Below are positions 1 through 43,192 of a DNA stretch of 64,000 nucleotides, one piece after another. Position numbers and translations under genes: made by a program. The number at the start of each line of letters is the position of its first letter. The stretch's first letter is position 1. The stretch comes from Candidatus Shapirobacteria bacterium (GTDB lineage: Bacteria; Patescibacteriota; Microgenomatia; UBA12405): positions 7,570 through 71,569 of the forward strand of contig JAQVSI010000001.1 in NCBI GenBank assembly GCA_028700625.1. The letters run 5' to 3'. Below the pieces are notes generated by a model. It searched no databases and was not told where the DNA came from. It was given only the letters and a program-made list of their open reading frames with translations.

Positions 1-22
1 AATTTTAATAGTATCATTAATA

Positions 23-670
23 ATGTCACTCTTTCTCGATCTAATCTTCCCTAAAATCTGCTACGGTTGTGGTCAAAAAGGGGATTATTTATGCCCCAAA
101 TGCCAAAAAAATATTCATGTTTTAAACACTAAAGCACCCCAAAACGGTTTCGACGGTGGTCTTAGTCTTTTTAAATACGATTCAGCCATAAAATCGGCCA
201 TAATTGATTTAAAATACCACTTTGTTTCCGATAATATTGATATTCTAGTCAATTTCATTGTTAAAACCCTAAAATCAGACTTTCCCAATCTAATTAAATA
301 TTGGCAGCAAAATAATTTCATTTTAATTCCCATTCCTCTTCATCCTTCTCGTCAAAATTGGCGCGGTTTTAATCAATCCCAACTTTTAGCTCAAAAAATC
401 GCCTCAAAATTGTCTTTAGATTTCTCAGATGAGATTATTATTCGTCATCAAGAGACTATGCCTCAAGCCAGACTAAAAAATACCAAAGATAGAACAAAAA
501 ATGTCGTCAATATCTTCTCTTTAAACCCAAATATAGGAAAAATAAAACATAAAAATTTTATTCTTTTTGACGATGTTTCCACGACTCAATCGACTCTTTC
601 TTCTGCTCAAAACACTCTTAAAACCTTGTCCCCATTACACTGTTGGTATTTGACTCTATCGGCTGGATAA
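23..670 (+). CDS. comFC: ComF-family phosphoribosyltransferase (ComFC-like): N-terminal CxxC..CxxC zinc finger, PIPLHPSRQNWRGFNQ motif, C-terminal PRTase motif ILFDDVSTT
   Basis: Motif match read from the translated ORF; architecture typical of ComFC/amidophosphoribosyltransferase-like competence proteins. Confidence 0.7.
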   Translation: MSLFLDLIFPKICYGCGQKGDYLCPKCQKNIHVLNTKAPQNGFDGGLSLFKYDSAIKSAIIDLKYHFVSDNIDILVNFIVKTLKSDFPNLIKYWQQNNFILIPIPLHPSRQNWRGFNQSQLLAQKIASKLSLDFSDEIIIRHQETMPQARLKNTKDRTKNVVNIFSLNPNIGKIKHKNFILFDDVSTTQSTLSSAQNTLKTLSPLHCWYLTLSAG

Positions 671-1280
671 CTTCTTCTTCAGTCGACGTATTATTTTGAT
701 CCATTTGTTGCATTCCTTCAAATGGGGTCAAAGAGCTTAGATAAAAATTATCGACATGTAATCCATGTTGAGCCAAAGAATCAATCAATTCTTGTTTTAC
801 CTCATCTTCAATAATACTTCTATCAGTCGACAAAGCTTTTATTAAAGTATGATTGGTTAAAACTTTTCTAATTCGGCTTCGAGTTACTGGTCTAACCACT
901 TTTGAAACAAAATTTTCACCAATATTTTGCCAAATTTCAGGCAATTTTTCAGTATCGAGTTTGATTAAAACTGTTGCTTCTACTGCCACAAATTTATTAT
1001 CAGAAGTTACTGCATTAATCACTTCATCACCCATTATCTCTTTATTGTCTTTCAAGATAATATCTTTAGACACAGTATATTCTATTAATTGAGCATTAAA
1101 CAATTTTACTCGGTGAATTAGAGGTACTTTAAAATGCATTCCTGGGTGCCAAACATTTTTCAAAACTCCTCTAAAAATACTATAAATACAGCCAACGTGA
1201 CCTGGTGGAACGGTTACTATAAATCCGCCAACAACTTCGTCAACTAAAAGGGAAACTAAGAGATTATCTATTGATGCCAT
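618..1280 (-). CDS. SPFH/band-7 (prohibitin/HflC-like) domain protein
   Basis: 220 aa ORF; composition and length typical of SPFH domain proteins; convergent ~50 bp overlap with comFC 3' end. Confidence 0.5.
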   Translation of the reverse strand: MASIDNLLVSLLVDEVVGGFIVTVPPGHVGCIYSIFRGVLKNVWHPGMHFKVPLIHRVKLFNAQLIEYTVSKDIILKDNKEIMGDEVINAVTSDNKFVAVEATVLIKLDTEKLPEIWQNIGENFVSKVVRPVTRSRIRKVLTNHTLIKALSTDRSIIEDEVKQELIDSLAQHGLHVDNFYLSSLTPFEGMQQMDQNNTSTEEEVIQPIESNTNSVMGTRF

Positions 1281-1301
1281 ATATGTAGAAGAATTATAGC
1301 A

Positions 1302-1949
1302 TTAAAAGGCCAAAGTTATCTCGTTTAGCTCCTTTTCTGGGTCTTTAGCTTTAATAATAAATGAAGAAATTAATATTCCTTTTGCTCCAAGTTTCAAACT
1401 AACCGACACATCTTCTTTTGAGTGTATTCCAGCTCCCACTAAAACCGGTATTTTGCCATATTTTTCCACTATTTTTTTAATTATTTCTGGTTTTTCACTG
1501 GCTACCGATTTTTCACTATTGCCAATAAATTCTTTTGGTTCGTAAGCAATCATGTCAGGTTTAATATTTTTTGCCCAACCATCAGCTTGCCCAAGGGTAC
1601 TAACGCAAACCACCGATTTAAAACCTTTTGGCCAATTTTTTAATATATTTTTAATTGAACCGGGTTTTATTTTATGCTCAGAATGGTTTATTAATGTCCC
1701 TTCTATTTTTAATTCTTTGGCTTGGAAAGGGGAAATAAATCCTGTTTTAGCTCCATCATTAACACTATCGACTGCTTGCAAATATACATCAATTCCCAGT
1801 TTTTCTTTAATTCTAACAGCATCTAATGCCGAGACTATTGGAATAATTTTAACCCCAGTTTTTTTCATCACTTTTTGGCAAATCTCTGCCATTTTCAAAG
1901 CCCCATCTCCAAACGTTTCTTTATAAATTTTAAAATTAACTAATATCAT
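1302..1949 (-). CDS. tpiA: Triosephosphate isomerase, short archaeal-type (~215 aa)
   Basis: MILVNFKIY start, LINHSEHK (catalytic His region), AYEP (catalytic Glu), VLVGAGI phosphate-binding loop; length and sequence resemble archaeal TIM rather than the ~250 aa bacterial form. Confidence 0.7.
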   Translation of the reverse strand: MILVNFKIYKETFGDGALKMAEICQKVMKKTGVKIIPIVSALDAVRIKEKLGIDVYLQAVDSVNDGAKTGFISPFQAKELKIEGTLINHSEHKIKPGSIKNILKNWPKGFKSVVCVSTLGQADGWAKNIKPDMIAYEPKEFIGNSEKSVASEKPEIIKKIVEKYGKIPVLVGAGIHSKEDVSVSLKLGAKGILISSFIIKAKDPEKELNEITLAF

Positions 1950-1962
1950 TATTAATTTTTAA

Positions 1963-3483
1963 TTATTTAACCAAACCATATTTTTGTTTTAATTGACTAA
2001 TTCCACTAATCAAAGTTTTAACAACATCTTCACTCTTTTCATTTTTTAAATTAATACCATTTATTGCATCACCAAAATATTTTTGCATTTCTGTATTAAC
2101 CCCATCATCACCAGTATTTGAAGCCAAATACCAACTACTGGCATTATTAGCTGTATCTACAAAAGGCTTAATTTTAGTATTACTGCTTATTTTTTCCACC
2201 ATACTTTTTCGAGGATAAATTTGTCCAAAACTTCTAATTAAAGAATCGGCTTGATACATTTTTTCCAATCCTTCAGTTGAAGATAAATATTCCAAAAATT
2301 TCCAAGCTTCTTTCTGATATTTACTTTTGTTATTTATTCCCTCTGTCCAATAAGTCGACCAGTGAATATTTGTTAATTCAGCCTCTGCTCCAATTTTGTC
2401 AGTTGGGGTTGATGCATTTGTTGGTAGTTGAGGTAAACTAGTCACTTGAAAATCTAAATTAGGATTTAAGGTTTGAATATCAAAAATTCTCCATGAAGGC
2501 CCAAAATAAAAACCAAGATTTCCACTAGCAAAATATTGAGTTGAATTAGGCAAACTTTCATCCCAAACCTTGTCACTAGTTTTAAATAAAGTATAAAAAT
2601 CTAATACATCTTTTAATTTTTTTTCATTATCAGCAGATAAAGTGTTTAAATCAACTCCGTTTTGTTTCATCATCAAACCCACAATATCACTCCAATGATC
2701 CACATTTTCCACTGTTCCGATTGCTGCTCCAGCCACTTTAATTTTTCCATCAGCGTCTCTTTCAGTTATTTTAACAGCCGATTTTTTCAAATCCCACCAA
2801 TTATTAGGAACCTTAACTTGAGCTTTCTCTAACAAGGAAGGGTTATAGAACATCACTAATCCGTCATACATCAGTGGCACTGATAAATATTGACCATTTT
2901 CTTTTAAATCGCTTTTATAAACATCAAAAAAGTCATTTTCTAGTCCAATAGCTGTGACCACTTCAGTAGGAACAGCAGCTAAATTGTCCCTAAACATAGG
3001 CAACCAAGTATTATGGATTCTAAAAATATCTGGAACATCTTCAGTTTCTCCGCTTTTAGCTAATCTGCCATTAAGTCTTCCAGCATAACCATTTAATTGG
3101 TTTCTTTTATAATTTATTTTTATGTTTGGATTTTTGCTTTCAAAATCGGCAATTATTCCATTCATCACACTTTCGTCTTCCCACAACCCCCAATAATTCA
3201 AAGTAACAAGTTTACTAGAATCACTTCCTTTAATAAGATTAAAAACAATAATTGCTATTATAAAAAATATTATTCCTGATCCCATCAATATAAATAGTTT
3301 TTTATGACTCTTTTTAACTATTGGAACATTAATAGGTGGAACACTTTGAGAAATATTTGTTGGTGCCTCACTCGTTTGATCATTAACCAAAGGAATACTC
3401 TGTTCAATATTTTCGTTTTCTGTTTCCGTTTTAAAAACCACTTTTCTTGGTGGTAACGGTGATTTTATATCTTCAAGACTCAC
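1963..3483 (-). CDS. Membrane-anchored extracellular solute-binding protein (family 1 sugar SBP-like), orphan (no permease/ATPase adjacent)
   Basis: N-terminal Pro-rich cytoplasmic segment plus single TM, then ~400 aa domain with LNYWGLWEDE..NPNIKINY pattern typical of SBP_bac_1. Confidence 0.45.
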   Translation of the reverse strand: MSLEDIKSPLPPRKVVFKTETENENIEQSIPLVNDQTSEAPTNISQSVPPINVPIVKKSHKKLFILMGSGIIFFIIAIIVFNLIKGSDSSKLVTLNYWGLWEDESVMNGIIADFESKNPNIKINYKRNQLNGYAGRLNGRLAKSGETEDVPDIFRIHNTWLPMFRDNLAAVPTEVVTAIGLENDFFDVYKSDLKENGQYLSVPLMYDGLVMFYNPSLLEKAQVKVPNNWWDLKKSAVKITERDADGKIKVAGAAIGTVENVDHWSDIVGLMMKQNGVDLNTLSADNEKKLKDVLDFYTLFKTSDKVWDESLPNSTQYFASGNLGFYFGPSWRIFDIQTLNPNLDFQVTSLPQLPTNASTPTDKIGAEAELTNIHWSTYWTEGINNKSKYQKEAWKFLEYLSSTEGLEKMYQADSLIRSFGQIYPRKSMVEKISSNTKIKPFVDTANNASSWYLASNTGDDGVNTEMQKYFGDAINGINLKNEKSEDVVKTLISGISQLKQKYGLVK

Positions 3484-7126: not shown

Positions 7127-7746
7127 TCAGCTGTCACAACCATGTACATAAACTGGAATAAGAGGGACCGAAGATAATTCTTGCTTCAATCTTGTTTTAT
7201 AAATATGAAATATTCCAGATTGAAAAGGTAATTCTGGATTGTAATCAATATCTCCGACCACTTGTGGAAATATTAAAATAGATCTTTTATTTAGATCAAG
7301 TATTTCATTTACATCAGAAATAAAATTTCTATTTAATTTTTTCGGATTATTTCTAACTGGAATAAGGTCGTCTCCAATACTTTTATTAAAACCTTCTTTT
7401 ATTGGCAATATTATTTTTTCTTGAACATCATTCAAAATTTTATTTTTAGGATTTTTTTCATAATCAATCTGTCCTACTATTGTAATTTTTCCCCAGTCGT
7501 CTTATAAATTTGATTGAATATAAATAAATGGTCTGGTCTTGTCCCAGAATCATCGCCACCTTCTACTAGACTATTGTGATTTGAAAAAATAATATGTGGC
7601 TTATCGATAATCTCTTTAAGATTTTCAATTCCATAAGTTTTAACATTAAATTTTTCCACATAATCAGTTCTTAAATAACCCAAAATTGGGGCTAATGTTT
7701 TTTTACCAACAAAGTTGCTAACATTTTCTATTTTTTCACTAAACAT
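7127..7746 (-). pseudogene. Possible frameshifted 1-acyl-sn-glycerol-3-phosphate acyltransferase (PlsC-like) split into two ORFs (7477-7746 and 7127-7435)
   Basis: First ORF carries an NHxSxxE block resembling PlsC motif I (Asp replaced by Glu); second carries LIFPQ..LPFQSG..VPLIPVYVHG resembling motifs III/IV; the two ORFs are in different frames. Confidence 0.3.
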
Positions 7747-15790: not shown

Positions 15791-15797
15791 TTTTAGG

Positions 15798-15871
15798 TGG
15801 GTATGCATGGACTCGAACCATGGACCCCCGACTTATAAGATCGGTGCTCTAACCAACTGAGCTACATACCC
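15798..15871 (-). tRNA. tRNA-Ile (anticodon UAU), cloverleaf folded by hand; CCA not encoded
   Basis: Reverse complement GGGTATGTAGCTCAGTTGGTTAGAGCACCGATCTTATAAGTCGGGGGTCCATGGTTCGAGTCCATGCATACCC: 7-bp acceptor, D-arm, anticodon loop CTTATAA, T-loop TTCGAGT. Confidence 0.7.
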
Positions 15872-15875
15872 TAAG

Positions 15876-15949
15876 TAGCAGGAGTGGGACTCGAACCCAC
15901 GACCTCAGCGTTATGAATGCTGTGCTCTAACCGGCTGAGCTACCCTGCC
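15876..15949 (-). tRNA. tRNA with anticodon CAU (Met elongator or lysidine Ile2)
   Basis: Reverse complement GGCAGGGTAGCTCAGCCGGTTAGAGCACAGCATTCATAACGCTGAGGTCGTGGGTTCGAGTCCCACTCCTGCT; anticodon loop TTCATAA; G-U pairs at the acceptor ends. Confidence 0.65.
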
Positions 15950-15985
15950 AAAGTATATGAATTATACCAAAATTTATAAAGATTT

Positions 15986-16035
15986 CTCCCTTTCATCAAA
16001 GAGAGATGCCCCGCAACAGCGGGGAGAGGGATTTA
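15986..16035. repeat. Palindromic element, copy 4 (between tRNAs): TCTCCCTTTCATCAAAGAGAGATGCCCCGCAACAGCGGGGAGAGGGATTT
   Basis: Repeat family member. Confidence 0.65.
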
Positions 16036-16083
16036 AGACAAAAAACAAAAAAGCCGCCTAATTAAAGACAGCCCCTTTGTTTG

Positions 16084-16153
16084 TTGCGGGGCTAGGAGTT
16101 GAACCTAGCCTGTGAGATTATGAGCCTCACGTGCAGCCGTACACTACCCCGCA
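16084..16153 (-). tRNA. tRNA with anticodon CAU (70 nt, short D-arm, 4-nt variable loop; fMet or Met/Ile2)
   Basis: Reverse complement TGCGGGGTAGTGTACGGCTGCACGTGAGGCTCATAATCTCACAGGCTAGGTTCAACTCCTAGCCCCGCAA; perfect 7-bp acceptor, anticodon loop CTCATAA. Confidence 0.5.
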
Positions 16154-16215: not shown

Positions 16216-16563
16216 TTACTGAGTAAACAGCTTAATCCATTGTCTAATTTTAGGTATTTCTTTATTTTCATTTGTTTTAGGAAATAAATCCAGATTTTCT
16301 TCTTTGTTTAGCTTCAACCAAACATCGTTTTCTCTTCCCATCCCAAATTTTTCATGAGCTTGTTGATCAATAAAAGCACTACTGGTAGCGTATTCTATTT
16401 TTTGTTTCAAAATTTGGTTTTTTTGGCTCAAATTATTAATTTCTTTCTCTATCTTTATATTTTGTTTTTTAGCTTCTTTTAGGGTTCCAAACTGGGTCGT
16501 GATATTACTAATTATTGAGCCAGTTATTACCAACCCCAGTAAAATTAAAAAAAATTTCTTCAT
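16216..16563 (-). CDS. ftsB: Septum formation initiator (FtsB/DivIC-like) protein
   Basis: N-terminal TM, coiled-coil, and conserved C-terminal IDQQAHEKFGMGRENDVW block typical of FtsB/DivIC. Confidence 0.5.
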   Translation of the reverse strand: MKKFFLILLGLVITGSIISNITTQFGTLKEAKKQNIKIEKEINNLSQKNQILKQKIEYATSSAFIDQQAHEKFGMGRENDVWLKLNKEENLDLFPKTNENKEIPKIRQWIKLFTQ

Positions 16564-16625: not shown

Positions 16626-17495
16626 ATGGCCGACTTATCAATTGAAAACGCTTTAAGTCTTTTCACTAGCGCGCTTACCAAAAATGGTAAGTCAATTAAT
16701 ACTATTGTAGCTTACAAAGGTGATTTGAACCAATTAATTGTTTTTTTACAAAAACAATTTCAAATTTCTACCGTTGACTTAGTTAATGAAGATTCTATTG
16801 AAGCTTTTAAAAAAAATTTAACTCAAAACGAATATACTGCTAAATCTATTTCTCGTAAACTTAATTCGGTTAAAAACTTTTTTTCTTTCTTAAAAAATGA
16901 ATCTATTATTACTATTGATCCTTCTCTTGAAATTAAACATCCAAAATACGAAAACGATTTACCAAAAATTTTAAAGCCAATTGAATACAGATCCCTTCGT
17001 GACGCCTGTCGAAATGATAGCCGTGCCACTGCCATTGTTGAATTAATGCTTCAATCGGGTTTAAGAATTAAAGAAATCGAAAGTTTAAAACTTGACGATG
17101 TAAAAGACAATGAGCTTTTAATCGAAAGTTATGAGTCTCATTCTTCTCGAGTTGTTCCTTTAAATAACTCAGCCAAAACTGCTCTTAAAAAATATTTAGA
17201 TGATGGTCGCTATCCAGGAAAAGCTAAAAATGTTTTTGTTACCAAAACTGGTCGTAGTTTATTAGCCAGAAACATTAGAAGTCTTTTAAATCGTTACTTT
17301 ATCAAGGCTGACATTAAAGATATTAAAGTTAATGATCTTCGTAACACTTTCATCGTTTTTCAGCTTAAGTCAGGTGTTCCAATTGATATTGTCTCTCAAG
17401 TCGTTGGCCATAAACGCATTTCTACTACTGAAAAATATTTGGAATTAATCGATTCTAAAGAAGAATCCAAAGGCATCAAATTAAAAGAACTCTAA
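16626..17495 (+). CDS. xerD: Tyrosine recombinase, XerC/XerD-like
   Basis: N-terminal SAM-like core-binding domain (TIVAYKGDLNQL), catalytic region LRNTF..VGHKRISTTEKYLEL (R..H..R..Y). Confidence 0.7.
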   Translation: MADLSIENALSLFTSALTKNGKSINTIVAYKGDLNQLIVFLQKQFQISTVDLVNEDSIEAFKKNLTQNEYTAKSISRKLNSVKNFFSFLKNESIITIDPSLEIKHPKYENDLPKILKPIEYRSLRDACRNDSRATAIVELMLQSGLRIKEIESLKLDDVKDNELLIESYESHSSRVVPLNNSAKTALKKYLDDGRYPGKAKNVFVTKTGRSLLARNIRSLLNRYFIKADIKDIKVNDLRNTFIVFQLKSGVPIDIVSQVVGHKRISTTEKYLELIDSKEESKGIKLKEL

Positions 17496-17500
17496 ATAAG

Positions 17501-17545
17501 CCGTCCCTTTTCAAGGGAGGGTGCCCGCAGGGCGGGTGGGTTTTA
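17501..17545. repeat. Palindromic element, copy 5 (canonical): CCGTCCCTTTTCAAGGGAGGGTGCCCGCAGGGCGGGTGGGTTTTA, between convergent xerD and the ATPase gene, abutting the ATPase stop codon
   Basis: Repeat family member; double hairpin plus T-run is terminator-like. Confidence 0.75.
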
Positions 17546-19876
17546 CAATCTCGCCCTTTTTCCTATTTCCGCTTCCACCAATTCTCTTGGTCGGCCATAT
17601 TTCAATGATGATAATTTCTTAATCATCTCGGCTTTTTTAGGATCGCCTGCTTTAAGTCTTTCTGCTGCTGCCACTTTTAATGAAAATGGCTGTTTAGGAA
17701 CTCCATTAATCATAGTTTTCATATATATTTCTCCCGTTCCTAAATTCAATAGATCATGTTCTCCAAATTCTGGTTGAAATTGTTTAGCCAAAAATCCAGC
17801 ATCGGAAATACCAAGTCTAAAACTACTTATAGTACCAACGTTTCCAAACACAGCGTTTTTAACTTCATCGTCCATCTGAGAAATAAATTGATTAGCAACT
17901 GTTAAATTTAAGTGATATTTTCTGGCTTCAGATAAAATAACAGCAAAGTCTTGAGTAGCAAAATTTTGAAACTCATCCACGTATAGATAAAAATCTTTTC
18001 TCAATGCCTCTGGAGTATCTTGTCGGCTCATAGCGGCAATTAAAATCTTAGGAATCAACACTAATCCTAAAAATGCTGAATTTTCTTCTCCAATTGTTCC
18101 TTTAGCTAAATTAATTATCAAAATTTTTCCATCATCCATCGCTTGTCTAAAATTAAAAGAAGAAGTGCTTTGGCCAATAATATTTCTCATCATAGTGTTG
18201 GTAATAAAGCGTCCAAATTTAGACACTATATAATCCAAAACTTCTGATTTGTGGAAATCACTAGTTTGGGCAATTTGATCAGTCCAATAACGTCTCACCA
18301 TTGGATCAGTTAATTTTGGTAATAATTCTTGAACATAATTTTGATCAGTTAAACAACGGACTATTTCAATAAAAGTTGCCCCAGGCTCAATCATAACTGT
18401 TAACATTATATTTCTAATTGCGTGTTCAAATCGAGGTCCCACAATACCAGTTTTATATGGATCATAAAGTTTATACATCAAATTGATAATAGAACTTGTT
18501 ACAAAATCTTTTTGATCTTCTCGGTCACATTCCATCACATTAAAACCCATTGGTCTTTCTGTTTGAGATGGATCAAAATAGATAACATCATCAATTCTCT
18601 CTGGAGGAATTCTTTCCAAAATACTTTCATAAGTATCGTGTGGATCAATAAAACAAACTCCATGACCAGCCTTAATATCTTGAAGTGCCATGTCTGCTAA
18701 AAGCCAAGATTTACCCACACCAGTTTGTCCCACAATATAAAAATGTCGTTGCCTATCATTTGTTGTCATACAAAATTTTTTATTAACTCCGCGATACAGA
18801 TTGTCACCAACATAAAGTCCCTCTTGAGGGGAATCAGTTGGAGCCGGTGCTTTTTTGGCCTTTAACCAATAAATATTTGGAGTTTCAATCGATTTATTTG
18901 GAAAATGGAAGATGCCAGCAATTTCATCTGAAGATAAAACAGTCTTATTTTTAATCCACATTAACACAGGATATTTATAGATGAAATCAGCCATAAACAT
19001 CGATTTGACCATTATTTTTTTGCTAGTAAGCTTATTCCAGGGCGATTCAAATTGGCCAAAACATGCCTTAATATTGGAAATATTCATCTTAGCTATTTCT
19101 TTGCTTGGTGCCACTGCTAGAATTCTTATCACCACTTCAAAACTAGGTTTACTACTTTTTTGTTCAATTGCTTCCAATTGTTTAGCATCGATTTTGTAAG
19201 AAGCCTTTTCGGAATTAGATTCTGATTTTTTAGTACTACTAATAAAACCTCGACCCATTTTTGCCCACTTACCTTCAGTCGGTGATAAAACTAGTTGGAT
19301 TGAAATTGTTTCATTTTCGTTTAATTTAGACAAAGTTGAAGTTACTGCAGCTAAAGGATCAACCGAAATTTCTTTGTAGTTTTTTAAAGGATAATAGGGG
19401 ATTTTTTTTAAAGCCAACCATAAGTATTCTACTTTACCATCGTTAGTATAGATATTTGGTTCTTCAACCACCTTAACATCAGCTCCAGCATAAACACTGT
19501 AAATTTGTTTTTCGATTAAATCTTGATATTTTTCTGGAATTGAAATATAGAACTTAATATCATCATGAGTTCCAATAATTTCCAAAGATACACTTGGTTG
19601 AGAAATTAATGGTTGCAAAAATTTTAATTTTGCCGATTTATGTAGGCTGGAAATTGAATTAATTATTTGTTCACTAGCATCAATTTTTATCTCATTATCT
19701 TGTGGCACTGCTATCAATAAAGTTATCAACTTTAAAGACTTTTCTTCTCTATCTCTCCACTTCCACCACATTAAAACTGCCAAACTTAAAAATCCTAAAA
19801 GCAAGACAATTAATACTATTATTAGTAGTGACATCAAAAACGCAGTTATTTGTTCAACTATCAAACTTTGATTCAT
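17543..19876 (-). CDS. Membrane-anchored FtsK/TraG/VirD4-superfamily P-loop DNA-translocase-like ATPase (777 aa) with ~400 aa non-canonical N-terminal domain
   Basis: Single N-terminal TM; Walker A GQTGVGKS; Walker B LYVDEFQ; LTVANQFISQMDDEVKNAVFGNVGTISSFRLG matches the post-Walker-B Q..SQL..G....FR block of coupling proteins and FtsK. Confidence 0.5.
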   Translation of the reverse strand: MNQSLIVEQITAFLMSLLIIVLIVLLLGFLSLAVLMWWKWRDREEKSLKLITLLIAVPQDNEIKIDASEQIINSISSLHKSAKLKFLQPLISQPSVSLEIIGTHDDIKFYISIPEKYQDLIEKQIYSVYAGADVKVVEEPNIYTNDGKVEYLWLALKKIPYYPLKNYKEISVDPLAAVTSTLSKLNENETISIQLVLSPTEGKWAKMGRGFISSTKKSESNSEKASYKIDAKQLEAIEQKSSKPSFEVVIRILAVAPSKEIAKMNISNIKACFGQFESPWNKLTSKKIMVKSMFMADFIYKYPVLMWIKNKTVLSSDEIAGIFHFPNKSIETPNIYWLKAKKAPAPTDSPQEGLYVGDNLYRGVNKKFCMTTNDRQRHFYIVGQTGVGKSWLLADMALQDIKAGHGVCFIDPHDTYESILERIPPERIDDVIYFDPSQTERPMGFNVMECDREDQKDFVTSSIINLMYKLYDPYKTGIVGPRFEHAIRNIMLTVMIEPGATFIEIVRCLTDQNYVQELLPKLTDPMVRRYWTDQIAQTSDFHKSEVLDYIVSKFGRFITNTMMRNIIGQSTSSFNFRQAMDDGKILIINLAKGTIGEENSAFLGLVLIPKILIAAMSRQDTPEALRKDFYLYVDEFQNFATQDFAVILSEARKYHLNLTVANQFISQMDDEVKNAVFGNVGTISSFRLGISDAGFLAKQFQPEFGEHDLLNLGTGEIYMKTMINGVPKQPFSLKVAAAERLKAGDPKKAEMIKKLSSLKYGRPRELVEAEIGKRARL

Positions 19877-20250
19877 TCCTCATTAAATTTTACATTACCT
19901 TTGTTCTTTTTAATTAATCTAAACACAAACTCAGATAACCATCTTCCTGCATCGCCAACAGTTTTATTGAAACCTTCCGAAAAAACTTTCTTATTTGTTG
20001 GAAGAGATACTTTAACAACTGCTGGGGCAATTGTTTGTAAAACCGAATCATCATCTCCTTTAATTTGGTTTTGGCCACTTATGGCTGGATCTTGTTCCAC
20101 TTTTTCCATCCAACTTTGCACCTCTCTAGGAATAATTACATCTTTTTTTAAATCAATTAAAACCTCTGTTGGTTTTTCATTTTGTCTTCCAAGTTGTTCA
20201 CTATTTTGTTCATTTTGATCGTCTACTAATCTTTCTTTAATTTCAGCCAT
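19873..20250 (-). CDS. Hypothetical acidic protein (125 aa), 4-bp overlap with the downstream ATPase gene (likely co-transcribed)
   Basis: ORF organisation only. Confidence 0.4.
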   Translation of the reverse strand: MAEIKERLVDDQNEQNSEQLGRQNEKPTEVLIDLKKDVIIPREVQSWMEKVEQDPAISGQNQIKGDDDSVLQTIAPAVVKVSLPTNKKVFSEGFNKTVGDAGRWLSEFVFRLIKKNKGNVKFNEE

Positions 20251-20285
20251 GTATACAGTATAAGTTAGAAGGTATAATTAACACA

Positions 20286-21488
20286 ATGGTTGAAAATGAA
20301 TCCAGCTTTTCTAAAATCCGAAAAATAGATAACAGTCGTCAATGGTTGCCTTTTTGGACTACTCTTTTGCTCGTTTTTTTGATTGTGCTTGTTGTTTGGT
20401 TTTTTAAAGGAGGCAGCTTTAAATTATATGCCAGTGTCTTTTTCTTTATTTACTCTTTAACAAACAAGATCTGGATTTCTGTTATTTTAATGGGTGTTCT
20501 TCAAAATGTTTTTTTTATGCCTTTGCGTCTTATTGGTAATTCTTTTGATAAATCTCTAAAAGAGTTTGAAGATGAGTTGGATAAAATAGACAGACAAGAC
20601 AATCAGTCTTTAGTTTTTAGTAAAAAAATTAAAGAGGGAAGTCTTTCTCTTGTTTTTTATATTTTCAATTTCTTTGTTAATGCAATTGCTTTCTTTTCTG
20701 CTGGACGTATATTTTTAATCGATTTTTATTCAGATCCTCTCAAGTTACAAAAGATGAAACTCCTTTACGATTGGGTTCCTTATCCAAAATATCCACTAAA
20801 TGGCATAAATTTCCATGTTCCGCTTTTAAGAGTCACTGAAACTATGGCTCTGGATTGGTCTAGAATTTTTACTTTTGTGGGTATCACTGTTTTATTTTTT
20901 GTTGTTCTCCGTCTTTTATGGAGAATCCTTCGTATTTTTCTTGGTCGAAATAAAAAAGTTCTTTTTGCCCGCATCAAATATAATCGTTTACTTTTTACTA
21001 TTAGTGGTTTTGGTGGTGTTGCTTTAATTTTAATGGTTATCTTTTTGCGTCACATCCCAACAGCATTCCAATCGTTTGTTTTCATTGCGAATCTAAGTCG
21101 TCAAAACACTCCTATGAATTTTGTTACCGCTGTTGGCACTTTTATAGTAACCATGCATGCTGGTTATAAAAACAACATAGAAGCATCTAAAAAAGCCGAA
21201 CTTTCCAATATTCCACCCGAAATTATTAAAAAAGTTTTCAAAAATAAAATGAAACAGAGCCTTAAAAATGCCACTGTGCTTGGTCTTGGAGCCTTCTTTA
21301 TTACCAATCAAATTCCTTCTGCTTTTGAATTGTCAGTTACCACTTTTGAAGTGATGTATCTTATTTATCCCTACACTTTCGGTCTAATTATTAAAAAAAG
21401 TGGTCAATTAACTCCACCCAAATCTACTGAAGATATTCACCCTTCTCCACCTCAAAATGAGTTAATCATTGCTGAAAAAATATCATGA
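20286..21488 (+). CDS. Hypothetical polytopic membrane protein (400 aa), stop overlaps start of polyprenyl synthase gene (ATGA)
   Basis: Multiple hydrophobic segments; no recognisable motif. Confidence 0.4.
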   Translation: MVENESSFSKIRKIDNSRQWLPFWTTLLLVFLIVLVVWFFKGGSFKLYASVFFFIYSLTNKIWISVILMGVLQNVFFMPLRLIGNSFDKSLKEFEDELDKIDRQDNQSLVFSKKIKEGSLSLVFYIFNFFVNAIAFFSAGRIFLIDFYSDPLKLQKMKLLYDWVPYPKYPLNGINFHVPLLRVTETMALDWSRIFTFVGITVLFFVVLRLLWRILRIFLGRNKKVLFARIKYNRLLFTISGFGGVALILMVIFLRHIPTAFQSFVFIANLSRQNTPMNFVTAVGTFIVTMHAGYKNNIEASKKAELSNIPPEIIKKVFKNKMKQSLKNATVLGLGAFFITNQIPSAFELSVTTFEVMYLIYPYTFGLIIKKSGQLTPPKSTEDIHPSPPQNELIIAEKIS

Positions 21489-22558: not shown

Positions 22559-22605
22559 AGCCCTCTTTGTCAAGGGAGGGTGCCCGCAGAGTGGGTGGGT
22601 TTAAG
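22559..22605. repeat. Palindromic element, copy 6 (canonical), immediately upstream of dnaG, overlapping its annotated N-terminus
   Basis: GCCCTCTTTGTCAAGGGAGGGTGCCCGCAGAGTGGGTGGGTTTAAGG. Confidence 0.75.
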
Positions 22606-41021: not shown

Positions 41022-43139
41022 ATGTTTTCTTTACTAATCACTTTTCTATTATTTTTTATAGTTACAGTTCAACCTGTTAACGCTCAATTATTAGAAGAAT
41101 CCACTTCCAGCGCTCAAATTATCCCCACTGAAATTCCAATAACCGAAATCACACCAATCCCAACCGATATCGCTTCAACCTTAACAGAAAATATTTTAAT
41201 CCCCACCGAAACACCAACATTAACCCCAACTTTAATTCCAACTCCAACTCCAACTCCAACTCCAACTCCAAAAGTTATTGAAAGTGAATCCATAAAATTT
41301 CCCCAAATCACCACCGACAAGGCTGATTATTCTCCAACCGATATTGCTATTATTTCTGGTAATAATTTTTTATCAAATACTCAATACATTTTAAATATCA
41401 CTTCAGACAATTTAAATGTTAATTATCAAATTAATTCCGACGAATCCGGTTCTTTTATTTATAATTATCAACTCGATGGTATTTATCGACCAAATTATAA
41501 AGTTGAAGCCAGAGATTTAAACAACAATATTATTTCCTTCATCACTTTTACCGACAAAAGAAGTGTCCTTTCGGCCACTGTTAATGGACAAAATTCAATC
41601 AATGTTTTTTCCAGAGATTCAATTACTGTCGGAGTAAGTGTTAACACAGATTGGTGGTGGTTTTGGAACAATGATTGGAGATCAACTTCCTGGAGGTTTG
41701 GTAATTCTGGAGAGTGGAATTGTGTTGACACTCCAAACCATCTTAAATCAGGCGATTATTCAGAATTTTTTCAAATAAATGCTCCCATAAATCCCAAAAA
41801 ATATCAATTACAAATCAGAATTCATGGTTTAGAAAATTGTGGAATTTTATTTAAAAGTGATATTTTTACTCTAAAAGATGCTATAACAGTTTCTCTTCCC
41901 GACACCACTCCTCCAATTATTACCATCGATTTATACAACACAAATTTAACCAATCAAGATATTATTGTCTCAGCTTCTACCAATGAAGGCACTTTAAATT
42001 TTACTTCTCACACTTTTGAATCAAATGATTCTTTTACTTTTATTGCCACTGATAGTGTTGGTAACATTGCTACTGAAATTATAACTATCAATAATATCGA
42101 TAAAACCCCACCAACTCTTTTAAACAAAACCGAATTTGGAAACAGTTGGTACAACACCGATCAACTTTCAGTTTTTAATTTTACCGATGAAAATGGCGTT
42201 ATTTCTGGTAATAATCCAACTTGCCAAATTTTCAGCGAAGGTTCTTTTCAAACTTGTTCTGTTGGTTTAAATGTTTGTGATACCGCTGGTAATTGCAATA
42301 CTGATTTAATTTTTTCCAATAGTGCCAACATCGACAAAACTAAACCAATTTTGGGTTTTTCCATAACTCCATCTTCTTCTAATGCCGATAATAATTGGTA
42401 TAGAACTCAGCCAGAAATAAATTTAACTAATATTGAAAATAACCCTTTTATTTTCCAATACAAATGGGATTCTGAAAATAGTTGGACTAATTATAATTTT
42501 TGTTTAAGACCTTCTTTTGAAGGTTCACATACTCTTTATTTCCAATCTCAAGATTTGGCTGGTAATCAGACAAGTTCTCTTATTGAAATTAAATGGGACC
42601 AAACTGAACCATCTATTGCCCCTCAAAACATAAGTGCCAATCCAAACAACACTAGTAATAGTGTTTCTACTATCAAATGGGACCAAGCCATCGACAATAT
42701 TGGCATTGATAAATATGAAATTAAATGGACTTTAAATAACCCTAATAATCCATTTTCTTATTCTAAAACAGTTGGGTTTGATGTTAGAGAAACTGAAATT
42801 GATAAATTAATTGAAGGTCGTTGGACTGTTCAGGTTTTTGCTATCGATCCAAGTGGTTTAAAAAAAGACAATGCTATCGATTTATTTATTATTAAAAATA
42901 GCGAAATTATTTTTAATGATGTTCCTGTAAAAACAGTCTTGGCTCAAAAAAAATTATTAACAGAAATTAAAGATACTGATAATCAAATTATTCCGATTCT
43001 AACTTCATTTCCAACTGTTTTAGGCACTTCAACCACTAAAAAGAAATTTAATTTAAAATGGTTTCTTTTAGTTACAATTATGGTTCTTTTATATATCAGC
43101 ATCCGCAAGTACAACAATAAATCAAAAAAAATAATATAG
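41022..43139 (+). CDS. Large cell-surface protein (705 aa): signal peptide, Pro/Thr-rich linker, beta-rich repeats, C-terminal TM plus basic tail
   Basis: Architecture read from translation; (PT)n linker; C-terminal WFLLVTIMVLLYISIRKYNNKSKKII anchor. Confidence 0.45.
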   Translation: MFSLLITFLLFFIVTVQPVNAQLLEESTSSAQIIPTEIPITEITPIPTDIASTLTENILIPTETPTLTPTLIPTPTPTPTPTPKVIESESIKFPQITTDKADYSPTDIAIISGNNFLSNTQYILNITSDNLNVNYQINSDESGSFIYNYQLDGIYRPNYKVEARDLNNNIISFITFTDKRSVLSATVNGQNSINVFSRDSITVGVSVNTDWWWFWNNDWRSTSWRFGNSGEWNCVDTPNHLKSGDYSEFFQINAPINPKKYQLQIRIHGLENCGILFKSDIFTLKDAITVSLPDTTPPIITIDLYNTNLTNQDIIVSASTNEGTLNFTSHTFESNDSFTFIATDSVGNIATEIITINNIDKTPPTLLNKTEFGNSWYNTDQLSVFNFTDENGVISGNNPTCQIFSEGSFQTCSVGLNVCDTAGNCNTDLIFSNSANIDKTKPILGFSITPSSSNADNNWYRTQPEINLTNIENNPFIFQYKWDSENSWTNYNFCLRPSFEGSHTLYFQSQDLAGNQTSSLIEIKWDQTEPSIAPQNISANPNNTSNSVSTIKWDQAIDNIGIDKYEIKWTLNNPNNPFSYSKTVGFDVRETEIDKLIEGRWTVQVFAIDPSGLKKDNAIDLFIIKNSEIIFNDVPVKTVLAQKKLLTEIKDTDNQIIPILTSFPTVLGTSTTKKKFNLKWFLLVTIMVLLYISIRKYNNKSKKII
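41236..41266 (+). repeat. Hexanucleotide (CCAACT)n microsatellite encoding the PTPTPT linker
   Basis: About 5 perfect tandem hexamers. Confidence 0.6.
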
Positions 43140-43192
43140 CCCTCCTTGTCAAGGGAGGGTGGTCCCGCTGCTGCGGGACCGGGTGGGTTTTA
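43139..43192. repeat. Palindromic element, long copy 9, between convergent genes, ending at the helicase stop codon
   Basis: GCCCTCCTTGTCAAGGGAGGGTGGTCCCGCTGCTGCGGGACCGGGTGGGTTTTA. Confidence 0.75.

Follow-up and report, generated by a model that had tools for sequence, protein, structure and literature searches.

The 64,000 nucleotides at positions 7,570 to 71,569 of the forward strand of contig JAQVSI010000001.1 (assembly GCA_028700625.1), which we call the window, come from a Candidatus Shapirobacteria bacterium and encode a membrane-anchored P-loop ATPase together with a small soluble partner. The two genes form a chromosomal operon ancestral to Patescibacteria. The ATPase is a core chromosomal gene of these organisms, neither the remnant of a mobile element nor an FtsK. 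Its motor, with intact Walker A and Walker B motifs, falls, within the FtsK-HerA superfamily, in the VirB4/VirD4/HerA branch, and the whole protein is a hybrid inside the VirB4/VirD4 lineage: one transmembrane helix, a VirB4-like N-terminal domain, a motor resembling that of type IV coupling proteins (T4CPs), and no gamma domain. The explanation that best accounts for this ensemble, namely a core operon built around a VirB4/VirD4-type ATPase in which a proposed ring motor and its adaptor would serve a type IV secretion system (T4SS), is one to which we give slightly better than even credence. What is new here is the assignment of the N-terminal domain, known to Pfam as DUF8128, and the recognition of the conserved small partner; the family was already catalogued, and the genes of the window are ordinary members of that uncharacterised family. 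The features on which the argument rests are the following.

17543-19876, minus strand: membrane-anchored P-loop ATPase, 777 aa, member of the family with DUF8128 and DUF87-like domains
19766-19849, minus strand: N-terminal transmembrane helix of the ATPase, about aa 10-37, from hydropathy and the modelled helix
18833-19747, minus strand: N-terminal domain of the ATPase (Pfam DUF8128), aa 44-348, folded like the N-terminal domain of VirB4
17642-18829, minus strand: RecA-like motor domain of the ATPase, about aa 350-745, with a helical insertion at about aa 454-581
18707-18730, minus strand: Walker A of the ATPase
17972-17989, minus strand: Walker B of the ATPase
19873-20250, minus strand: partner protein, 125 aa, soluble, overlapping the ATPase start through ATGA

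The sequence of the motor shows familiar landmarks. Walker A reads GQTGVGKS (aa 383-390) and Walker B reads YLYVDE (aa 630-635), the latter followed by ARKYHLNLTVANQFISQMDD...SSFR. A preliminary description of this locus had noticed a Q..SQ block after Walker B; it is indeed there, and it aligns with the RK...Q..SQ.DD block of TrwB (SQLDD in TrwB itself). The only strongly hydrophobic segment, aa 10-28 (hydropathy 3.03), lies inside a modelled helix that runs from aa 3 to aa 48, and because WKWRDREEK comes after the transmembrane helix, the positive-inside rule predicts that the rest of the protein is cytoplasmic. The AlphaFold model, derived from an alignment of 47 sequences, is confident (predicted local distance difference test 89.8, predicted template modelling score 0.80); it has a single transmembrane helix and ends with two short helices (aa 746-776). 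The single anchor and the lack of a gamma domain (no match to PF09397), as first described, are thus borne out.

When the full-length model is compared with known structures using Foldseek, the top matches are TrwK/VirB4 (E about 1e-15). The ATPase displays the two-part plan of VirB4, where a VirB4-like N-domain precedes a C-terminal ATPase domain. The N-terminal portion had been presented as some 400 residues of unknown nature; its fold removes it from that category, and we recognise DUF8128 as a VirB4-type N-domain. A profile of the family run against PDB sequences found TrwB (5e-8) and DotL (6.6e-6) as its best matches, and reached neither VirB4 nor FtsK. TrwB was aligned over 361 of 420 residues: the anchor, the nucleotide-binding domain and the helical insertion (aa 454-581) are all present in the ATPase, with the VirB4-type domain of about 300 residues standing between anchor and nucleotide-binding domain. 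It is this combination, a full-length fold like that of VirB4 with sequence likeness at the level of TrwB and DotL, which makes us speak of a hybrid.

Hidden Markov models (HMMs), which had been recommended as a check, gave a mixed picture. DUF87 matched with 33 bits, over the P-loop region only (aa 376-461). TraG-D_C (17.6 bits for a cut-off of 22) and TrwB_AAD_bind (13.3 bits for a cut-off of 20.5) stayed below threshold, and T4SS-DNA_transf gave no match on the ATPase in the Pfam scan; the T4CP models of NCBIfam did not reach their cut-offs either. In Pfam and NCBIfam, none of the CagE_TrbE_VirB, TraC and VirB4 models matched the ATPase, nor was FtsK_SpoIIIE (PF01580), the FtsK alpha domain or the 4TM domain detected.

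The closest homologues are 75-92% identical to the ATPase of the window, and those with a name are Candidatus Shapirobacteria. These homologues and the orthologues from Saccharibacteria carry precomputed matches to PF26449 (DUF8128), the close ones to PF01935 (DUF87) as well, and it is from these matches, rather than from a scan of its own sequence, that the window ATPase very likely belongs to the PF26449 family. The family is large: an exhaustive HMMER search among the representatives of clusters built at 50% identity collected 5,432 clusters with E<=1e-30, and relaxing the limit to E<=1e-3 brings the count to 21,190. Scanning a single genome for each species gave at least 600 matches, and we studied the best 80 loci. 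Among these best 80 are Shapiro-, Levy-, Woese-, Roizman-, Curtiss- and Daviesbacteria, all Microgenomates, together with Dojkabacteria, WWE3, Saccharibacteria, Berkelbacteria, Staskawicz- and Magasanikbacteria (Parcubacteria), and Peribacteria; a few contigs entitled "uncultured Gammaproteobacteria" or "Bathyarchaeia" display Patescibacteria synteny, and we take them for bins with a wrong label. The neighbour-joining tree that we computed for the family tracks the taxonomy of Patescibacteria, so the gene looks ancestral and vertically inherited. Tandem second copies, found in three loci, form an outgroup in that tree. These paralogue pairs, tandem or nearly so, lie at 1128-6163 in L045, 9917-18545 in L049 and 9741-17193 in L051; the second copy in L051 follows a sigma-factor gene, as does a T4CP of Southlakia, SEML1_0293, discussed below. 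No mention of DUF8128 was found in the published literature.

The family varies at its periphery. Its saccharibacterial members have 200-250 additional residues at the C-terminus and adjoin GyrB/GyrA instead of the Xer and DivIC-like genes described further on; no Pfam domain was found in the C-terminal extensions of the long members. In some cellular relatives a motor about 50% identical is fused to tetratricopeptide repeats. In 13 loci of Parcubacteria type, a conserved protein of about 200 residues that matches nothing in Pfam is encoded on the same strand downstream of the ATPase (for example at 12589-13230 in L055 and 12308-13081 in L077), and may be a third, lineage-specific component of the operon.

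Relatives are also encoded by phages. Homology with gp156 of Bacillus phage G (JN638751.1, 90982-93066) extends over aa 87-723, hence both N-domain and motor (E 4e-36), and gp27.4 of Bacillus phage SPO1 (3209-5929 in L115) is a distant homologue matching from aa 236; the PHROG family phrog_5156 matches aa 216-774 of the window ATPase (E 7.7e-85). The two phage proteins differ from it in being only 20-24% identical, phage-encoded and uncharacterised. The 2.9 million viral contigs of IMG/VR hold relatives with at most 47% identity, mostly ATPase-only proteins of 400-430 residues. At such identities we do not retain a phage origin for the ATPase.

The partner is as much a part of this story as the ATPase. 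Its TGA stop codon overlaps the ATG of the ATPase in an ATGA, and GAGGA lies just upstream, as befits the translational coupling initially proposed. Following a definition of 60-260 aa, non-membrane, same strand and within 160 nt, a small open reading frame (ORF) sits directly upstream of the ATPase in 53 of the 77 loci, as compared with 64 of 339 for other genes of at least 300 aa in the same loci (Fisher p 7.5e-17). The small acidic partner previously pointed out is therefore one half of a conserved pair, its acidity being weak (isoelectric point 5.17, net charge -3). The family to which the partner of the window belongs was traced to 21 of 80 loci with an iterated HMM that grew no further. 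In its members the N-terminal half varies, and the conserved features are P-x-EV and a C-terminal helix reading RWL...R..K; no Pfam domain matched the partner, and its counterparts in Saccharibacteria and Parcubacteria make up families separate from its own. As far as sequence comparison goes, the partner is conserved in position and fast-evolving in sequence.

Genome-wide data on the importance of genes exist for Southlakia epibionticum, where transposon-insertion sequencing (Tn-seq) was carried out (Wang et al., 2023; PMC10633639). SEML1_0142, a gene of 3,060 nt annotated there as "TraM recognition domain-containing protein" (Tables S1 and S2), is essential at all three time points and flagged as a core family enriched in Patescibacteria; just upstream of it SEML1_0141, a hypothetical protein of 139 residues, is essential too (PMC10633639). 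The main text of that article does not discuss SEML1_0142 (PMC10633639), and we found no discussion of it elsewhere in the published literature. The flanks of the gene comprise IF-3, YifB and a 117-aa ORF on one side and, past the ATPase, two opposite-strand genes of 193 and 535 aa followed by GyrB and GyrA (PMC10633639). They correspond gene for gene, in order and strand, to those of L083, a DUF8128-bearing locus in a complete Saccharibacteria genome whose two opposite-strand genes encode 190 and about 600 aa, and other Saccharibacteria loci share the arrangement. Synteny and domain content thus lead us to regard SEML1_0142 and SEML1_0141 as orthologues of the ATPase and its partner: the former resembles the window ATPase in its DUF8128-type domain content, its small upstream partner and its status as a core gene. 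Like other saccharibacterial members it would differ by its C-terminal extension, its GyrB/GyrA neighbours and a partner without detectable homology. Also encoded in this genome are an essential FtsK of canonical build (SEML1_0096), which has the alpha, motor and gamma domains, a classical T4CP with a TrwB_AAD_bind domain (SEML1_0293, non-essential) and a bona fide VirB4 (SEML1_0008), while its T4SS cluster is essential and has no recognisable coupling or relaxase proteins (PMC10633639).

Comparison with known systems makes the peculiarity of the ATPase apparent. With T4CPs such as VirD4, TrwB, DotL and Cag-beta it has in common the N-terminal anchor, the RecA-like motor with a helical insertion, the TrwB-like block after Walker B and the rank of TrwB and DotL as best profile matches. 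It departs from them in having an N-terminal domain of about 300 residues of VirB4 type, and in having one transmembrane helix, where T4CPs usually have two. It is, besides, below the Pfam thresholds, devoid of relaxase or T4SS genes nearby, essential and chromosomal. Being encoded away from virB4 is, by contrast, a trait that it shares with many t4cp genes (PMC12102498). VirB4, TrwK and TraC have the same succession of N-domain and C-terminal ATPase in about 800 residues, and match over their full length in Foldseek; yet no likeness of the ATPase to VirB4 models or PDB sequences appears at the sequence level, its own transmembrane helix replaces a separate VirB3, no VirB3, VirB6 or VirB8 gene stands beside it, and Patescibacteria genomes encode a distinct, bona fide VirB4 at another place (SEML1_0008). 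FtsK and SpoIIIE are membrane-anchored members of the same FtsK-HerA superfamily and, in some lineages, the ATPase has a Xer-like neighbour; it lacks, however, their motor, alpha and gamma signatures, and has a single transmembrane helix instead of 4TM. As for HerA, the N-domain of the ATPase matches VirB4 and not HerA with its HAS-barrel, and no gene for NurA, Sir2 or a nuclease adjoins it.

How might such a pair work? By analogy with TrwB, VirB4 and HerA, the ATPase would probably form a ring at the membrane, and the hydrolysis of ATP by that ring would probably power the movement of a macromolecule or some step of assembly. The partner would probably bind the ATPase as an adaptor or a regulator, as CagZ does on Cag-beta, or as do the adaptors of DotL. 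Together, they would supply the missing coupling ATPase, or a second energising ATPase, of the T4SS-like apparatus that Patescibacteria encode at a distance. We favour this role as the coupling or energising unit of a distant T4SS, tentatively and with somewhat less than even confidence. It would explain why the ATPase is essential beside an essential T4SS without T4CP; the fact that the classical T4CP of Southlakia, SEML1_0293, is dispensable, when the T4SS cluster lacking a recognisable coupling protein is not, speaks for it. So does a published survey, according to which nearly all Patescibacteria genomes encode VirD4-like homologues, for the most part at a distance from virB4 (PMC12102498).

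Several observations weigh against this role. No T4SS component, relaxase or pilin gene is found beside the family, be it in the 64-kb window or among the recurrent neighbours of 80 loci, which have housekeeping functions; the Pfam T4CP models remain sub-threshold on the window ATPase; and hhalign detected no homology between the three families of partners. No T4SS already equipped with a VirB4 is known to require another protein whose N-domain is of that type. The orthology of SEML1_0142 would follow from synteny and Pfam content, rather than from direct alignment. Finally, that survey, which covered 3,035 Patescibacteria genomes, counted 5,713 VirD4-like T4CP homologues, spread over 2,918 of the genomes and with no more than 148 near virB4; VirB4 occurs in 2,417 genomes (Quinonero-Coronel et al., 2025; PMC12102498). 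The resulting 96% for T4CP-like proteins against 80% for VirB4 hints at occurrence without a T4SS, with the proviso that the DUF8128 family is not confirmed among the T4CP matches of that survey (PMC12102498).

The same figures, where T4CP-like genes appear more widespread than VirB4, lend weight to a second possibility, which we consider serious even if doubtful on balance, and little less likely than the first: that the pair is a membrane translocase specific to Patescibacteria and independent of any T4SS, exapted from VirB4/VirD4 ancestors, which would act at the membrane on DNA or protein while cells grow or divide, or import macromolecules derived from the host. Exaptation of t4cp homologues is held possible by the authors of the survey (PMC12102498). 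In none of the 80 loci does the family share a cluster with T4SS genes, and its recurrent neighbours (Xer, DivIC, GyrB, DnaX, ribonucleotide reductase, YifB and primase) belong to DNA metabolism and division. In Southlakia, SEML1_0142 is scored essential from the first time point on, like primase, sigma70 and GyrB, and distant full-length relatives exist in Bacillus phages, which have no T4SS. Against this, housekeeping genes crowd small genomes, and chance would be enough to bring such neighbours; both domains of the ATPase derive from T4SS ATPases; and there is no evident substrate or channel partner, the sole adjacent membrane protein being lineage-specific. A more specific proposal, which we deem unlikely without dismissing it, sees the ATPase and its partner as a self-contained essential membrane motor found in Patescibacteria only: alongside VirB4 and VirD4 it would make a third lineage, in which the VirB4 N-domain was retained and the service to T4SSs lost. 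Its task would be particular to the life of ultra-small epibionts; it may, for example, move nucleic acid or protein from the host across a single membrane, or segregate DNA at division.

The other rivals involve the surroundings of the operon, which are as follows.

15796-16153, minus strand: tRNA-Ile(TAT), tRNA-Met(CAT) and tRNA-Met(CAT), context genes whose position is conserved in relatives (for L001, the comparison covered called ORFs only)
16216-16563, minus strand: septation protein resembling DivIC/FtsB/FtsL (DivIC 1.5e-10), a context gene travelling with Xer
16626-17495, plus strand: Xer-like tyrosine recombinase, 289 aa (Phage_integrase E 6.9e-26), a context gene convergent to the ATPase
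17500-17545, plus strand: GC-rich double-hairpin intergenic element, copy 1, with other copies at 22560-22605 and 43140-43192
20286-21488, plus strand: polytopic membrane protein, 400 aa, with at least five hydrophobic segments, divergently transcribed

All the ORFs of the preliminary description were confirmed, with their coordinates. That of the recombinase, labelled XerD-like, does belong to a protein with the tyrosine-recombinase fold; the XerD, XerC and XerA models score 146-158 bits on it, below their cut-offs (157.9 bits against 329.6 for XerD, 152.1 against 335 for XerC), and the canonical R-K-H-R-H-Y set is incomplete, the histidine of HxxR being an asparagine (VNDLR). The same VNDLR, with asparagine for the first catalytic histidine of HxLR, is seen in all 22 aligned members of the clade of Xer proteins adjacent to the ATPase, and its retention throughout the clade makes it a feature of the lineage, not a sign of decay.

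Could the ATPase, then, be an unusual analogue of FtsK that works with the adjacent Xer in the resolution of chromosome dimers, as the preliminary description envisaged? A Xer gene lies at most 3.1 kb downstream of the ATPase, convergently, in 21 of 82 loci, usually together with the DivIC-like division gene (18 loci), and a membrane-anchored, ring-type member of the FtsK-HerA superfamily would be the right kind of protein. We nevertheless find the idea very improbable. The FtsK_SpoIIIE, alpha, gamma and 4TM domains are not detected; a tblastn search of the 1.37 Mb of window and loci, with a query modelled on the motor of E. coli FtsK, returned nothing; convergent genes are not co-transcribed; and Southlakia has its canonical, essential, gamma-domain FtsK besides the orthologue. 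The Xer-bearing loci are all from Microgenomates or Dojkabacteria, the adjacency being absent from the loci of Saccharibacteria and Parcubacteria: a Xer gene next to the ATPase is synteny at the level of lineages, not a link valid for the family. Together, the missing domains, the convergence, the patchy adjacency and the separate FtsK largely refute the pair.

The other interpretation put forward at the outset was that of a remnant of a conjugative element. In the form where the element would have inserted beside the tRNA cluster by means of Xer, it is by now extremely improbable. What could suggest it is the proximity of a tRNA cluster, whose three genes are indeed present, of a tyrosine recombinase and of a T4SS-type ATPase, as well as a 36-nt direct repeat with copies 5,059 nt apart. 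Synteny refutes it. In L001 (Shapirobacteria, GCA_030698565.1), with an ATPase 79% identical, gene order is that of the window from sigma70 to ValRS: sigma70, primase, polyprenyl synthase, membrane protein, small ORF, ATPase, Xer, DivIC-like gene, TrpRS, L25 and ValRS. What L001 has in addition is a gene of 361 aa separating primase from polyprenyl synthase and, in the interval from the DivIC-like gene to TrpRS, two ORFs of 52 and 344 aa; its Xer and ATPase genes abut without a spacer. Three further Shapirobacteria loci (L003, L004 and L043) keep the shared genes in this order. GC content is flat at 0.32-0.34, without local shift, the window having about 31% GC. Its genes are housekeeping ones (ValRS, L25, TrpRS, polyprenyl synthase, primase, sigma70, TsaD, MetRS, MurJ and others), few ORFs being without any family match, and no relaxase or other T4SS gene is among them. 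Neither the family tree, which follows the organisms, nor the 2.9 million viral contigs, where close relatives are missing, fits with a mobile element. Of what the preliminary description thought would tell against its interpretation, conserved synteny without island borders is therefore found, a full-length or gamma-domain match to FtsK is not.

The repeat itself is real, and is no attachment (att) site. We looked between 13.0 and 26.5 kb for direct repeats that would flank the region 15.8-21.5 kb: the only long one is the 36-nt pair at 17508-17543 and 22567-22602. It brackets the genes from the ATPase through polyprenyl synthase, leaving Xer and the tRNAs outside, and has a third relative 20 kb off, at 43151-43189. 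It folds as two GC-rich hairpins (AAGGGAGGGTG...GGGTGGGTT) located directly 3' of plus-strand genes, in a genome with 31% GC. The element was not found in 84 related loci and has no match in Rfam, which recovers the tRNAs only. It looks like a genome-specific, dispersed intergenic element, resembling a terminator or a repetitive extragenic palindromic sequence. The third copy comes directly after a 705-aa ORF (41022-43139, plus strand) that has no Pfam match at E<=1e-5.

That the ATPase would be the HerA-type enzyme of an anti-phage defence system is hardly credible, since PADLOC matches span only the shared P-loop core, no effector (Sir2, nuclease, NurA, or other mad or dnd genes) is nearby, and the gene, unlike those of defence, is universal, confined to a single locus, inherited vertically and essential.

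The flanking polytopic protein noted at the start is there, with its 400 residues, and is a neighbour specific to Shapirobacteria that stands outside the conserved module. Only 396 homologues are detectable, every named one from Shapirobacteria; the gene is present in four loci and missing from that position in L043. It has no match in Pfam or NCBIfam, and we rejected VirB6 and YidC as identities for it, on the basis of this lack of family match and of the narrow distribution of its homologues.

Two further observations concern the vicinity. The tRNA-Ile gene at 15796-15871 (minus strand), which two CAT tRNAs adjoin, has the anticodon TAT (UAU). In most bacteria AUA is decoded by a CAU tRNA modified by TilS, and the TAT anticodon may thus reflect a strategy independent of TilS. 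Beside sigma70, L001 encodes a Cas12-like protein with REC1, RuvC_1 and NUC domains (1-3277, minus strand), and the window has a histidine phosphatase and a tRNA-Asn at the corresponding position.

Patescibacteria account for a large part of the diversity of bacteria, and most of the essential genes specific to their lineage have no assigned function. Here, a false lead is removed, as the locus holds neither a conjugative island nor an aberrant FtsK. In its place stands an operon present across the phylum, strongly conserved, and essential in the only species of Patescibacteria with Tn-seq data. Built around an ATPase of T4SS type, it sits apart from a T4SS cluster that is itself without a recognisable coupling protein. 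Understanding DUF8128 as a VirB4-type N-domain, in a protein with a conserved partner, leads to hypotheses amenable to experiment, that of a missing motor for the T4SS and that of an independent translocase. Either of them bears on the way in which these epibionts take material from their hosts.

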